Part shown: in pieces, positions 14,303 to 55,311 of the stretch
Layout: each line of letters starts with the position of its first letter
How positions within the stretch are numbered: the stretch's first letter is position 1
Assembly (NCBI GenBank): GCA_020853525.1
Contig: JADYYS010000039.1
Location: forward strand, 76,587 to 140,586
Reading direction: 5' to 3'
Length of the DNA: 64,000 nucleotides
From: Ardenticatenales bacterium
GTDB taxonomy: Bacteria; Chloroflexota; Anaerolineae; Epilineales; Epilineaceae
Position numbers and translations under genes: made by a program
The notes under the pieces: model-generated
Told to the model about the DNA's origin: nothing
The model's database searches: none
Seen by the model: only the letters and a program-made list of their open reading frames with translations

Positions 14303-15385
14303 CTACACAAACCCCATCCGCTTCGTCTCCGCCGCGCTCCGCCGCCAGTCCGGCCGGACGCCGACCTGCAGCTCGAGGTACACCGGCCCTTCGAGCATCT
14401 TCTCGATCTCCTGGCGCGCGCGCGTGCCGATCCCTTTGAGCACGGCCCCGCCCTTGCCGATCACGATCGCCTTGTGCCCCTCGCGCTCCACGAACAGCCG
14501 CGCCCCGATGACCGTCACGCCGTTGTCGCGTACCGCCCACTCCTCGACGATGACCTCGATGCCGTGCGGCACCTCGTCCTCCAAGAGGAAGAGCGCCGCC
14601 TCGCGGACGAGCTCGGCGACGAGCATGCGATCCGTCTGGTCGGAGATCTGATCGGCCGGGTAGTACAGCGGCCCGGGCGGAAGCTGGGCGGCGATGAGCG
14701 CCCACAGGCGATCGAGGTTGTGGCCGCGCGTGGCGATCGTCAGCTCCCACAGCGCGCCGTCGCCGGCGAGCGCCGTGAACGCGGCGACGCGCGCCGCGAC
14801 GTCCTCCGCCGCGAGCCTGTCCGTCTTGTTCAGCGCCAGGATCGTCGGCCGCCCCGCCCGGCGCACCATCGCCCCGACGCGCTCGTCCAACGCGCGCGGC
14901 GGCACCGAGGCGTCGACGACCCAGACGACGACGTCCGCATCCGGGATCGCGTCGCGGGCCACCTTGACCATGTAGCTGCCCAAGGGCGTCCGCGGCCGGT
15001 GGATGCCCGGCGTGTCGACGAAGATCGCCTGCGCCGCGTCCGTCGTGCGGATGCCGAGGATCCGGCGGCGCGTCGTTTGCGGCTTGGGCGACACGATCGC
15101 CACCTTGTCGCCGACGAAGGCGTTCATGATCGTGCTCTTGCCGACGTTCGGCCGGCCGACGACGGCAACGAAGCCGCTGCGGAACACGCCGTCGGACGGC
15201 TCGTCGGCACGACCGAAGATGGATGCGAGGACATCGTCCGCGTCGGCGGGCGCGATCGCCTCGTACAGCTCGGCGAGGTCGGAATGCGCCGCGTCGTCCG
15301 CCTCGTCATCGTCGTCCGACAAGGCGTCGGCTTCGTCGACGACGTCGACGTCGGTTGGGTCATCCATCGAAGGATCATCGGACAT
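14303..15385 (-). CDS. era: GTPase Era with about 70-aa poly-acidic N-terminal extension
   Basis: Frame of ORF 14303..15481. The ATG at 15385 gives MSDDPSMDDPTD.... G1 is VAVVGRPNVGKST and a KH domain lies at the C-terminus. Confidence 0.9.
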   Translation of the reverse strand: MSDDPSMDDPTDVDVVDEADALSDDDDEADDAAHSDLAELYEAIAPADADDVLASIFGRADEPSDGVFRSGFVAVVGRPNVGKSTIMNAFVGDKVAIVSPKPQTTRRRILGIRTTDAAQAIFVDTPGIHRPRTPLGSYMVKVARDAIPDADVVVWVVDASVPPRALDERVGAMVRRAGRPTILALNKTDRLAAEDVAARVAAFTALAGDGALWELTIATRGHNLDRLWALIAAQLPPGPLYYPADQISDQTDRMLVAELVREAALFLLEDEVPHGIEVIVEEWAVRDNGVTVIGARLFVEREGHKAIVIGKGGAVLKGIGTRARQEIEKMLEGPVYLELQVGVRPDWRRSAAETKRMGFV

Positions 15386-15520
15386 GGCGCTGGCCTCGGT
15401 GCTCGTCGGCGGGACGAGAAAGCATAACGGCGGCGAGGGGGGAGACGTTGGAAGTATCCGGTGCGGCGAGAGGGCGGTCAACTGTGGTCGTGCCGCGGAG
15501 GCCGTCGGAGCCCCTCACCC

Positions 15521-15553
15521 CTCGACCTCCTCTCGACCTCCTCTCGACCTCCT
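15521..15553. repeat. perfect 11-nt tandem repeat x3 (CTCGACCTCCT; reverse complement AGGAGGTCGAG) in the era / 15566-gene divergent region
   Basis: Read directly from the sequence. It lies 13 nt upstream of the GGAG RBS of the gene starting at 15566. Confidence 0.8.
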
Positions 15554-15565
15554 GCGGAGCGACAG

Positions 15566-16819
15566 ATGTCCCGACAACCACGCAACGCGCTTGTCGCCAT
15601 GACCGCCGTGGTCCTCGCGACGACGCAGATCGTCACTTCCGCCGGCACCGCCGCCTCCCCCGGCCCGATCGACTACATCCCCGCCGATCTCACGGACTAC
15701 GCTCCCGTCGGCGTGCCGGACTTCTCGGCCTGTCGACCGGAGTGGAGCCGCCCCGCCGCCGAGGCGAACGGGCCCGGACAGTGGACGTTCAGCGCGCCCG
15801 TCGCCCTGGCCGACGCCCTGTGGTGGCTGGACTCGCGCGCCGAGCCGCAGCCCGCCGCGCCTCCCTTCGTACGGGACGGCCACGGCCTCGTCACGGCCTA
15901 CCCCGCCTTCGGGCCGCCCCGCGACGACCACGACACGGCGAACCTCGGGCCGCTCATCGACGACCTCGCCGGCCGGGTCAACACCGACAACCGCGGCGCG
16001 CCCGGCAACGTGCGCGGGACGCGATGGGAGGACTTCGTCGACGGTGTGGAGTCGTACGTGGCGACGCGGCGGCTCAAGCCCGGTTACGCCGTCGCCACGA
16101 CGCTGCGACCGACCGGGCTGTGGCTGCGCGCGCAGGCCGACCGGTCCGCCGGCGTCGTCGTGCTGATCGGCGTCTGGGAGCAGGCGGGCGAGGGGTGGCG
16201 CCGGATCGGCGGGCACTACGCCGCGCTGGCCGGGACGGACGCCGCCGGCGAGGTCGTCGCGCTCGCCGACCCGGTGTACGATCAGGCGGTCCGGCCCGAC
16301 AACGGCGGTCGGTTCGTCCCGACCGACGGTGCCGCGCACTCCTGCCGCAACGCGCCGCGCGCCCACGACGACGCCGGCGCCGTCAGCCACGACCGCTACG
16401 ACCTCTTCCCTCCTTCCGGCATGCCGGACGCCGCGTGGGCGCTGGCCGGCTATTTCCGCCCGGAGACGTTCGGCGAGGGCGCCGCGTTCGCCGGCCAGAA
16501 CCCGGCCGACCACCTGGCCGACGCCAGCGGCACGTGGCAGCGCGGCACCCTCATCGCCGTGCTGGACGCCGCCCTCGCGCTCCAGCCCCGCGGCGGCGGA
16601 TCGTCCGTCCCGACGGCGACGCCACCCGCCGCGACGGCCCCACCGACGCCGACGACGGCGCAGAGCGCCGAGCCGACGGATGCGCCGACCGCCCCACCGA
16701 CGCCGACGACCGGCGCGAGCCCGACCCGCGCGCGCCCGACGCCGGCGCCGATCGGGGGCCGGATCCAATTCGATCGCCTCTGGCTGCCGGCGCTGCGCAA
16801 CCAGAGTCGCAGGCGATAG
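15566..16819 (+). CDS. secreted hypothetical protein, possible papain-fold/C39-like peptidase domain, Pro/Thr-rich linker and C-terminal RLWLPALRN tag
   Basis: Frame of ORF 15461..16819. The ATG at 15566 follows GGAG and starts the signal peptide MSRQPRNALVAMTAVVLATTQIVTSAGTAAS. A candidate Cys (DFSACRPEW) and a GGHYAALAG motif suggest a C39-like fold, but this is a weak guess. The C-terminus reads PTPTTAQSAEPTDAPTAPPTPTT...GGRIQFDRLWLPALRNQSRRR. Confidence 0.55.
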   Translation: MSRQPRNALVAMTAVVLATTQIVTSAGTAASPGPIDYIPADLTDYAPVGVPDFSACRPEWSRPAAEANGPGQWTFSAPVALADALWWLDSRAEPQPAAPPFVRDGHGLVTAYPAFGPPRDDHDTANLGPLIDDLAGRVNTDNRGAPGNVRGTRWEDFVDGVESYVATRRLKPGYAVATTLRPTGLWLRAQADRSAGVVVLIGVWEQAGEGWRRIGGHYAALAGTDAAGEVVALADPVYDQAVRPDNGGRFVPTDGAAHSCRNAPRAHDDAGAVSHDRYDLFPPSGMPDAAWALAGYFRPETFGEGAAFAGQNPADHLADASGTWQRGTLIAVLDAALALQPRGGGSSVPTATPPAATAPPTPTTAQSAEPTDAPTAPPTPTTGASPTRARPTPAPIGGRIQFDRLWLPALRNQSRRR

Positions 16820-16823
16820 ACCG

Positions 16824-16860
16824 GCGAGCGGCGAGTGCGGCGAGTGCGGCGAGTGCGGCG
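16824..16860. repeat. 9-nt tandem repeat (GCGAGTGCG) x3 plus degenerate flanks, immediately after stop of the 15566 gene
   Basis: Read directly from the sequence. Confidence 0.7.
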
Positions 16861-16921
16861 CGATCGACGTGCGCGGCGACCTTAACGAAGGCCTCGCCTG
16901 CCGGATGCTATACTCGCGGCC

Positions 16922-25956: not shown

Positions 25957-26056
25957 CGAAGCCTCCAATCGTTCGGTTAACATTCGCCACGGCCCGAGCC
26001 GTGCGACGTGGCACGGTTCGGGTGGCACGGTTCGGGCGGCACTGCGGTCCGGCGCG

Positions 26057-38003: not shown

Positions 38004-38029
38004 GCGAAGGAGTGTAGCGTGACTGCGTG

Positions 38030-38084
38030 CGGTGGAGCGGCGTTCGTGCGGCGTTGGAGCGGCGTTGGGGCGGCGTTGGAGCGG
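38030..38084. repeat. 11-nt tandem repeat array, about 5 copies (CGTTGGAGCGG and variants), in ACAD / cytochrome c divergent region
   Basis: Read directly from the sequence. The periodicity is one helical turn. Confidence 0.75.
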
Positions 38085-38288
38085 CCGGCGGCGGCGCGGT
38101 CGGGTTCGCGTCGCCGGCACGACCGCATCGCCAGCCTTGATCGACCCTCGTCCGCCGGATAAAGTGTGTTCGCCGCACATGGCATGCAATCGTATGCACC
38201 GGGATCGCCTCGCCCGACGCCGCTGCGTGCAGCCGGACGTGACCTCGCGTCGCCGGACATCCGATCACCCCCTTCCCCGGGAGCCCGC

Positions 38289-52154: not shown

Positions 52155-52234
52155 CTTCGTGGGCATCGGCGAATCCATCGGGCGGCCGAGGGCATTACGT
52201 GGGCAGCGACGGATCCATCGGACGGCCGAGGGCG
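52155..52234. repeat. about 40-nt imperfect tandem duplication spanning the 3-prime end/stop of the GNAT gene
   Basis: Copy in the coding sequence: gccctcggccgtccgatggatccgtcgctgcccacgtaa. Downstream copy: gccctcggccgcccgatggattcgccgatgcccacgaag. There are about 5 mismatches; the stop codon TAA aligns with GAA in the second copy. Confidence 0.7.
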
Positions 52235-53881: not shown

Positions 53882-54658
53882 TTATCGTCCGATCGGCCCG
53901 ATCAGGCTCTCACCGCCGTCCACGTGGAGAACGGCACCGGTGACGAACGGGCTCTGGACGAGGTAGAGCACGGTGCGCACGACATCCGCCGGCTCGCCGA
54001 CACGCTGCAGCGGCACCCGCTTCTTCGTCAGCCGGCCCCAGTCTTCGCCTTCGGCCGCGTCCGGCGGCGGGAGGATGGCGCCCGGAACGATCGCATTCAC
54101 GCGGATGTCGGGCGCAAGGGCGCGGGCGAGGACGCGGGTCACATGGACGACGCCGGCCTTGCTCACGCCGTGCTGGATGTGCTCGCTCCACGCCTGGACA
54201 CCCGAAAGATCGGCCATGTTCACGATGAGCGCGCCCTCGCCCTCCGGCCGCGACGCGGCCCGCAGGTGCGGCGCCGCGGCCTGGGCGCACAGGAACGGTG
54301 CGCGGAGGTTCACATCCAGCGAAGCATCCCAGTCGGCCGCCGTGATGCTGCCGATCGCCTGCCGGTCAAACCGCGCGGCGTTGTTCACGAGGACGTCGAG
54401 CCGTCCGAATGCGGCCGCAGCGGCGTCGACGAGGCCCGGAATCGCCGCCGCGTCGGCCAGGTCGGCCGACAGCGCGATCGCCCGGACGCCCAGCGCCTCG
54501 GCGTCGCGGACGGTGCCGAGCGCGTCGTCGCGCGATCCGCCGTAGTGGATGACCACATCTGCGCCCGCGCCGGCGAGCCCGAGCGCGATTGCACGTCCGA
54601 GGCGGACGGCGGCGCCGGTGACGAGCGCCGTGCGGCCGGCGAGCGGGCGGGCGGGCAT
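53882..54658 (-). CDS. SDR-family oxidoreductase, pteridine reductase (PTR1/FolM)-like
   Basis: Frame of ORF 53882..54820, starting at ATG 54658. Motifs are TALVTGAAVRLGRAIALGLAGAGADVVIHY... and the catalytic YxxxK region (HGVSKAGV). It is embedded in the fol operon. Confidence 0.65.
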   Translation of the reverse strand: MPARPLAGRTALVTGAAVRLGRAIALGLAGAGADVVIHYGGSRDDALGTVRDAEALGVRAIALSADLADAAAIPGLVDAAAAAFGRLDVLVNNAARFDRQAIGSITAADWDASLDVNLRAPFLCAQAAAPHLRAASRPEGEGALIVNMADLSGVQAWSEHIQHGVSKAGVVHVTRVLARALAPDIRVNAIVPGAILPPPDAAEGEDWGRLTKKRVPLQRVGEPADVVRTVLYLVQSPFVTGAVLHVDGGESLIGPIGR

Positions 54659-54699
54659 CGTGTGTTCTCTCAGCGTGCGTTCTCTCAGTGTGCGTTCTC

Positions 54700-55311
54700 T
54701 CAGCGGCCGATCAGGCGGTAAAACTCGTCGCGCAGCGTCGGATCGTGCTTGAAGGCGCCGCGGCGGGCGGTGGTGATCATGTTCACGCCGTGCTTCTTCA
54801 CCCCGCGCAGGCTGGCGCACGTGTGCTCGCCGTCGAGGACGACCATCACCCCGACCGGATCGAGCGCCGCGACCATGCTGTCGGCGATCTCGTTCGTCAG
54901 GCGCTCCTGGATCTGGAGCCGGCGGGCGAACATGTCCACCAGGCGCGGGATCTTGGACAGCCCGACGACCCTGTCGCGTGGGATGTACGCCACGTGCGCC
55001 CGCCCGGTGAACGGCAGCATGTGGTGCTCACACATGGATTGGTAACCGATGTCGGCGACGACGATCATCTCGCCGTCGCCGTAGGCCACCTCGAACAACG
55101 CGCCGTTCAGAATCGTCTCGATGTCCTGGCCGTAACCGGAGAGCATCTCGCGATACATCTTGGCGACGCGGTGCGGCGTCTTCTGCAGGCCATCGCGCGC
55201 AGCATCCTCGCCGAGGAGCGAGAGCAGGCGGGCGACGAGCGACTCGATCTCGGCGGCGCTCCCGGTCGGGAGGCGCACCGGTTCGCGGCCGTTCGCCGCG
55301 GGGAGTGCCAT
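54700..55311 (-). CDS. folE: GTP cyclohydrolase I
   Basis: Frame of ORF 54700..55386. Motifs are ...VADIGYQSMCEHHMLPF...VVLDGEHTCASLRGV.... The start is ATG 55311 or 55386. Confidence 0.85.
   Translation of the reverse strand: MALPAANGREPVRLPTGSAAEIESLVARLLSLLGEDAARDGLQKTPHRVAKMYREMLSGYGQDIETILNGALFEVAYGDGEMIVVADIGYQSMCEHHMLPFTGRAHVAYIPRDRVVGLSKIPRLVDMFARRLQIQERLTNEIADSMVAALDPVGVMVVLDGEHTCASLRGVKKHGVNMITTARRGAFKHDPTLRDEFYRLIGR

Follow-up and report, generated by a model that had tools for sequence, protein, structure and literature searches.

An 11-bp tandem repeat of variable copy number beside the ribosome-binding site of a putative secreted-protein gene in uncultured Ardenticatenales

Variable-number tandem repeats (VNTRs), or minisatellites, are bacterial loci of the kind used in MLVA typing. 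In the leader hairpins which sequester the Shine-Dalgarno (SD) sequence, for example in RNA thermometers, an anti-SD-like CCUCC is paired to the ribosome-binding site (RBS). Contingency loci have, to our knowledge, been described almost only in host-adapted pathogens.

The promoter tandem repeats of Mycobacterium tuberculosis are reported to be phase-variable in copy number and to duplicate promoter elements, and their heterogeneity was measured within isogenic populations (PMC12817950). In the 5′-UTR of hmw1A of Haemophilus influenzae, the heptamer (ATCTTTC)n is reportedly present in at least 11 units and forms a long hairpin which is cleaved by RNase III, with expression falling as the units rise (PMC12721329). 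Distal-promoter tracts are exemplified by the TAAA tract of nadA in Neisseria meningitidis (PMC2791445) and the T-tract rheostat of sabA in Helicobacter pylori (PMC4081817); their units are of 1–4 bp, so that each step strongly rotates the helix face.

The array described here is located in the divergent intergenic region between era and the gene of a hypothetical secreted protein (hereafter the + strand gene), in a window of 64 kb (the whole stretch of DNA that was analysed) from an Ardenticatenales bacterium. The features are collected in table 1. An earlier note, made from the sequence alone, had pointed to three perfect copies of an 11-mer, and these are borne out by the sequence itself and by Tandem Repeats Finder (period 11, 3.0 copies, 100% matches, unit CTCGACCTCCT). 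The anti-SD and SD content of the units had also been read correctly, each of them carrying ACCTCCT, that is, AGGAGGT on the opposite strand. The array adjoins the GGAG RBS of the + strand gene, as the note had it, with a gap of 2 nt. On the other side, 136 nt separate it from the ATG of era (15385, − strand), where the note had given approximately 140 nt.

Table 1. Coordinates of the array and of the neighboring features in the window
Feature	Position	Strand	Remarks
era GTPase gene (MMR_HSR1 + KH_2 domains)	14303..15385	−	Divergent from the + strand gene; synteny kept in relatives
Predicted era promoter: −35 TTGACC 15481..15476, 17-nt spacer, −10 GATACT 15458..15453	15453..15481	−	Consensus scan and conservation
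Upstream purine boxes: CCGCGGAGG 15493–15501, GGAG 15507–15510	15493..15510	+	Predicted folds
Tandem array, 3 perfect units of CTCGACCTCCT	15521..15553	+	Units at 15521–31, 15532–42, 15543–53
Shine-Dalgarno GGAG of the + strand gene	15556..15559	+	6 nt before ATG 15566
Gene of hypothetical secreted protein, 417 aa	15566..16819	+	Signal-peptide-like N-terminus; no Pfam family
Second perfect array, GCGGCGAGT x3.67	16828..16860	+	3′ intergenic region of the 417-aa gene, stop 16819

In an exhaustive scan of the window for perfect arrays (period of 4–60, at least 2.5 copies and at least 22 bp), three were found, at 15521, 16828, and 36412. When 100 second-order Markov simulations were scanned in the same way, every one gave 0 arrays, and with nothing comparable among them, a chance origin of the array is ruled out. 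An assembly artefact is equally ruled out, the same alleles recurring in many independent assemblies. In detail, five more assemblies, independent of that of the window, carry the three-unit array (those of the four runs SRR11294019/22/29/31, and L039), and the 180-nt intergenic region of the four SRR assemblies is base-for-base identical to that of the window.

The 7-mer AGGAGGT/ACCTCCT itself is unremarkable, being present at ordinary frequency: the two strands of the window hold 12 copies of AGGAGGT, nine of them outside the array, and the mean per 7-mer is 7.8. Matches to the whole unit with one mismatch are more numerous (17 including the three array units, with 1.7 expected). However, 13 of the 14 which lie outside the array are found in strongly codon-periodic sequence, for instance GAG-GTC-GAG, so that their number is a codon-usage effect, and a dispersed regulatory motif was rejected.

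The array is noncoding. The region shows a flat codon periodicity, and since the alleles described below differ by 11 or 22 nt, which breaks the frame, the array cannot be translated; a coding repeat within the in-frame GTG ORF from 15461 was rejected on the same grounds. Searches against Rfam gave no family at gathering thresholds for the whole window and none at E <= 1 for 15300–15700. A promoter within the array, for which TCGACC of the unit could have supplied a −35-like hexamer, was also rejected, no −10-like hexamer being found 16–18 nt downstream of any unit. The promoter repeats of M. tuberculosis (PMC12817950) are alike in the high-GC genome, the position upstream of a gene, the lineage-variable copy number and the proposed route to altered expression, but the unit of the array, in contrast to theirs, holds no recognizable promoter element.

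The copy number of the unit varies among close relatives. Strain L039, 97.0% identical to the window, has three units as in the window, whereas four units are present in L026, L034, L035, and L036 (97.4–97.9% identical). The four-unit allele consists of two units A (CTCGACCTCCT) followed by two units B (CTCCACCTCCT). In the sister lineage, represented by L032 (GCA_016703025.1), L033, L037, and L038 with 91.3–92.1% DNA identity, there is one unit, CTCGGCCTCCT, located directly 5′ of GCGGAG in the place equivalent to that of the array. In the four distant syntenic loci (L016, L017, L019, and L023) the array is absent. The order of the genes is nevertheless kept in these four, that is, divergent era and hypothetical gene followed by the Peptidase_MA_2 gene, and the orthologue of the + strand gene shows 66–69% protein identity. 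These results confirm the recent origin that the earlier note had read from the perfect identity of the copies.

To arrive at the A-A-B-B pattern, one substitution must have been followed by two or more slippage steps of a single unit each. The unit variants are G4C in unit B and A5G in the unit of the sister lineage; both fall outside ACCTCCT, which is retained by every unit of every allele. Selection on the CCUCC box would be in keeping with this retention, which, the units being so few, is not significant. That two strains about 3% apart have the three-unit allele in common may point to a degree of stability or to stabilising selection.

A search of genome contigs with Era brought up distant relatives only, with at most 48% identity, which are uninformative for the intergenic region. 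The two-unit matches of the metagenome scan in L024, L027, L028, and L029 are unrelated, and the loci are not homologous. Another contig of the scan, L025 (Ga0209485_1012518), carries the identical 11-mer four times, followed by degenerate units, at 1788–1831 at its end. It has 73% GC and is without sequence similarity to the window, and the locus is not homologous; the 451-aa ORF beside its array looks like an IS110-type transposase, by eye only.

The alignment of L026 with the window extends over 11.9 kb with 97.4% identity and shows 275 substitutions but only four indels. All four of the indels are placed in tandem repeats in or beside the + strand gene: relative to the window, L026 has +11 nt in the array, +9 and +3 nt in a coding repeat near 16631, and +9 nt in the array downstream of the gene. 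The latter, composed of GCGGCGAGT, is present as 4.67 variant units in the four-unit strains and absent from L039 and the sister lineage, and judging from these comparisons it is likewise a VNTR.

The 11-bp array is a bacterial VNTR by all three of the defining features. It has multiple head-to-tail copies beyond chance, its unit number (1, 3, or 4) varies among close relatives with conserved flanks, and the indels are concentrated in repeats as opposed to unique DNA. Like other bacterial VNTRs, it consists of intergenic head-to-tail units within the size range of about 9–15 bp and of very high identity, and the unit number differs between close strains with internal variants (A and B). It differs from them in belonging to an uncultured environmental lineage of Chloroflexota (Ardenticatenales) and not to a typed pathogen, in having only 3–4 units and in being seen in consensus assemblies alone.

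The direct repeats could also be viewed as an operator array, in which the three units would bind an OmpR/PhoB-type winged-helix response regulator or a similar protein controlling the divergent promoters of era and of the secreted-protein gene. The 11-bp periodicity, close to one turn of DNA, the location in a divergent promoter region and the resemblance of TCGACC to a −35 hexamer would fit such a role. The likeness to PhoB/PhoP boxes does not amount to a test. Elsewhere in the window, however, most near-matches to the unit fall in coding sequence and not in promoter regions. Moreover, units which are perfectly identical and polymorphic in number are the mark of slippage, not of conserved operators. 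With one unit in the sister lineage and none in the distant relatives, there was no ancestral multi-site operator, and two or more direct repeats at 10–11 bp are not conserved in the orthologous promoter regions. An operator array is thus very improbable.

Other short arrays are found in the window. At 54659–54705, a 15-nt array of CGTGCGTTCTCTCAG (3.1 copies, 90% matches) takes up all of the space between two − strand genes. Read on that strand, each unit contains a TGA stop as well as GAGAGAA, which is purine-rich and SD-like, and the array borders directly on the ATG at 54658..54656; it is a further case of a duplicated region beside a RBS. Further short non-triplet arrays are placed at 38029–38085 (11 nt, 5.2 copies), 26008–26042 (14 nt, 2.5 copies), and 52158–52233 (40 nt, 1.9 copies), with codon periodicity flat on one flank only of the first and strong on both flanks of the last. 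About six non-triplet arrays per 64 kb seems, by impression, high for a bacterium, and the other short intergenic tandem arrays of the window are consistent with a general mutational tendency.

The product of the + strand gene is identical to the hypothetical protein IT332_08465 of an Ardenticatenales MAG (Chloroflexota). No Pfam family was found in it. In agreement with the earlier description of the gene as encoding a secreted protein, the N-terminus of the translation (MSRQPRNALVAMTAVVLATTQIVTSAGTAAS...) reads as a plausible signal peptide. The AlphaFold model, based on 35 homologues, has a mean pLDDT of 82.5, and its Foldseek matches are weak (best E = 1.5e-3, TM at most 0.5). Papain-fold Cys peptidases make up most of the top 20 matches, namely phytochelatin-synthase-like Alr0975, staphopain, C39-like and Josephin proteins, and across the family Cys56 and His217 show almost no variation. 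A kinship to papain-like Cys peptidases may thus be taken from the model as a lead, not as an assignment.

The coding repeat of this gene is Pro/Thr-rich and C-terminal (16600–16700). The insertion of 12 nt in L026, at approximately 16631, is in frame and matches the difference between the 421-aa and the 417-aa protein. After the Pro/Thr-rich linker, the relatives inspected (L016 and L017) share the C-terminal tail WLPALRN, which could be a sorting signal. The Peptidase_MA_2 gene downstream (ATG 16922) has an extended −10, TGcTATACT, at 16906–16914, which ends 7 nt before the ATG, and it is without a SD; this arrangement is kept in L016 and in the sister lineage. Because of the proximity of the −10, the missing SD and the conservation, its mRNA is probably leaderless.

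In the alignment of the intergenic region of the window with those of the four distant relatives, only three blocks are conserved, that is, GCATAACGG, GTTG[G/C]AAGTATCCGG and GGTCAAC. Two of the three are the −10 and −35 hexamers of the putative era promoter. This site, TTGACC-17-GATACT, agrees with the consensus at 9 of 12 positions, where shuffled sequences are expected to give 0.0 sites, and apart from it the consensus scan found no sigma-70-like site on the − strand in 15200–15800. Both hexamers and their spacing are invariant in all four relatives, whereas the sequence of the spacer varies. The pattern of conservation is that of a functional promoter, and we predict it to be the one of era. 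The era start would then be near 15446 and the array about 75–107 bp upstream of it. Positions −75 to −107 are beyond the usual UP-element zone.

Because this conserved predicted promoter separates the array from era, the array should not be part of the era mRNA. The earlier note had offered a different reading, in which the − strand of the array (AGGAGGTCGAG x3) presents three consecutive SD sequences upstream of era and suggests translational control or a ribosome standby site. As a standby or tandem-SD site of the era leader, the array would recruit 30S subunits upstream of the gene. Three perfect AGGAGGT do stand on the era-sense strand, 136–168 nt from the ATG, but the predicted promoter would place them outside the transcript, no other promoter-like site is found on the − strand in 15200–15800, and the relatives are without such motifs at that position. 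A standby site for era is therefore barely credible.

The conserved block GCATAACGG (15422–15430; CCGTTATGC on the − strand) lies in the predicted era leader and is invariant in all relatives. The ATG of CCGTTATGC opens a short upstream ORF, which in the window has 16 codons and overlaps the era start; in L016 it has 14 codons, and its end overlaps the GTG of era as GTGA.

In relation to era, the array is comparable to the nadA and sabA tracts, since the repeat is upstream of the core promoter and its length alters spacing (PMC2791445, PMC4081817). In contrast to the tracts, however, the unit of 11 bp is about one helical turn, so that phasing is nearly preserved, and the array is without a known flanking operator.

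On the side of the + strand gene, no sigma-70-like promoter was found in 15200–15800, and there are no TANNNT hexamers on the + strand of the whole intergenic region. In the relatives, only about 40 nt extend from GGTCAAC, the block of the era −35, to the ATG of the + strand gene. As there is no TANNNT and too little room downstream of GGTCAAC, the promoter of the + strand gene probably overlaps the era promoter region. Nor can a promoter be fitted in between the array and the SD, and the array thus most probably belongs to the 5′ leader of the + strand gene. It is outside the ORF, upstream of its ATG, and with 33–44 bp it is too long for a −35/−10 spacer. Of the four distant relatives, L016, L017, and L023 keep the GGAG-N6-ATG of the gene, and L019 has GAGG in place of GGAG.

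A location in this leader makes it necessary to consider a translational attenuator or rheostat. The CCUCC boxes of the leader would mimic the 3′ end of the 16S rRNA, pair with the GGAG of the SD and lower initiation, and expression would be tuned in a heritable manner as slippage alters the number of units. The presence of ACCUCCU in each unit, the 2-nt distance of the array to the SD and the polymorphism of the copy number, accompanied by variable coding and 3′ repeats of the same gene, speak in its favor. As to precedent, the pyrimidine-rich 5′-UTR repeat of hmw1A is reported to pair with a G-rich arm (PMC12721329).

The predicted folds lend this model partial support. In the minimum free energy (MFE) structure of the 119-nt leader, CCGCGGAGG pairs with the CCUCC of the last unit and with GCGG within GCGGAG; a further pairing joins GUCGU to GCGAC. 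A helix which includes the last unit thus encloses the SD region, and this speaks for the occlusion of the SD proposed in the earlier note. This helix, however, needs just one unit, namely the last, and the sister lineage already has one. The partner of CCUCC in the predicted folds is the upstream GGAGG and not the SD, and the adjacent GCGG of the SD region pairs with CCGC. Constructs with one, three, and four units have MFEs of −36.8, −38.9, and −37.8 kcal/mol, respectively, with an identical SD-proximal helix. The one-unit leader of the sister lineage folds similarly via GGAGGCC/GGCCUCC (MFE −36.3 kcal/mol).

The energies of these folds are no better than those of shuffled sequence and give the proposed occlusion no support. 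Against dinucleotide shuffles, the z-scores are −0.56 for 15482–15600, +0.37 for 15515–15585, and +1.07 for 15430–15600, and those of the allele constructs range from −0.5 to −1.05. The pairing of the purine boxes with the CCUCC of the units and the GCGG of the SD region is likewise not significant in energy. The fold energies of the leader thus give no evidence of selected structure. The predicted folds of the leaders of L016, L023, L017, and L019 are unrelated to that of the window, and in L016, L023, and L017 both the array and the CCUCC box are absent from the leader despite the same gene pair and SD.

The effect of the unit number on the accessibility of the SD, as calculated from the partition function, varies with the assumed 5′ end of the transcript. 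For a leader starting at 15482, the probability that the SD is unpaired is flat (0.27–0.28 over 0–5 units), and for starts at 15434 and 15447 there is no consistent trend over the same range. With a start at 15500, it falls from 0.26 to 0.07 over 0–5 units. The strongest dependence is predicted for 5′ ends at 15515–15521, where the probability is 0.53–0.59 without units, approximately 0.3 with one, and 0.02–0.03 with at least two. The occlusion model therefore depends on the transcription start site of the + strand gene, as the short leaders favor it and the longer ones speak against it.

SD-sequestering leader hairpins are similar in that a CCUCC box adjoins the SD and that some of the SD region falls within the predicted helix. 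They differ from the array, which is without significant or conserved structure and without a Rfam family, and whose CCUCC pairs with the upstream GGAGG. Pairing more stable than expected from base composition is not seen in the array leader, and conserved or covarying pairing is not seen in the orthologous leaders. A comparison with hmw1A gives a similar picture (PMC12721329). In both loci, a pyrimidine-rich variable repeat lies upstream of the gene of an exported protein, and the array, if transcribed, can pair with a purine- or G-rich partner in the leader. On the other hand, the array has 3–4 units, of which the last alone pairs in the predicted folds, and no significant structure.

On balance, we consider a translational rheostat unlikely. 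The clustering of three length-variable repeats on one secreted-protein gene is, by analogy, reminiscent of a contingency locus. A more elaborate proposal would combine the array with the two other variable repeats of the gene, the 3′ array and the Pro/Thr-rich coding repeat, into such a locus, in which the unit number would set the titration of the SD by ACCUCCU mimics of the 16S 3′ end before the gene of a secreted papain-fold enzyme; to this we attach little probability, less than to the rheostat itself.

The mechanisms of translational control put forward in the earlier note are, taken together, unsupported by the folds, by conservation and by the position of the era promoter. It had named two observations which would speak against them, a position of the array upstream of both transcription start sites and a lack of conservation in relatives. 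The latter is what we find; as to the former, the array would lie upstream of the era start, as judged from the predicted promoter.

The array is probably a young, lineage-specific VNTR whose quantitative effect is minor or nil. The ancestor would have had a single 11-bp stretch (CTCGGCCTCCT or CTCGACCTCCT) directly 5′ of the GCGGAG of the RBS. Replication slippage, through slipped-strand mispairing, would then have duplicated this stretch head to tail, resulting in three units in the strain of the window and four in the sibling strain, with the sister lineage staying at one. As the three anti-SD/SD motifs are copies of one ancestral motif, they are not independently maintained sites. In the predicted fold of the leader, only the CCUCC of the last unit takes part in a helix and additional units would do no more than widen the loop, a circumstance which would account for the tolerance of expansion on the RNA level. 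On the DNA level, each additional unit would add about one helical turn, and expansion would be easily tolerated there as well. The array is most likely near-neutral in function, and any quantitative effect on the translation of the + strand gene would be modest at most.

If the less likely rheostat were true, contingency regulation by repeats would extend to environmental Chloroflexota (free-living, of the wastewater type), and the locus would be a simple natural example of SD titration by anti-SD mimics. The results also call for caution, in that SD-like or anti-SD-like motifs which have been multiplied by slippage should not count as independent evidence for regulation. In practical terms, the array, a hypervariable repeat of an ordinary kind, can serve as a marker of strains in this uncultured population of Ardenticatenales.
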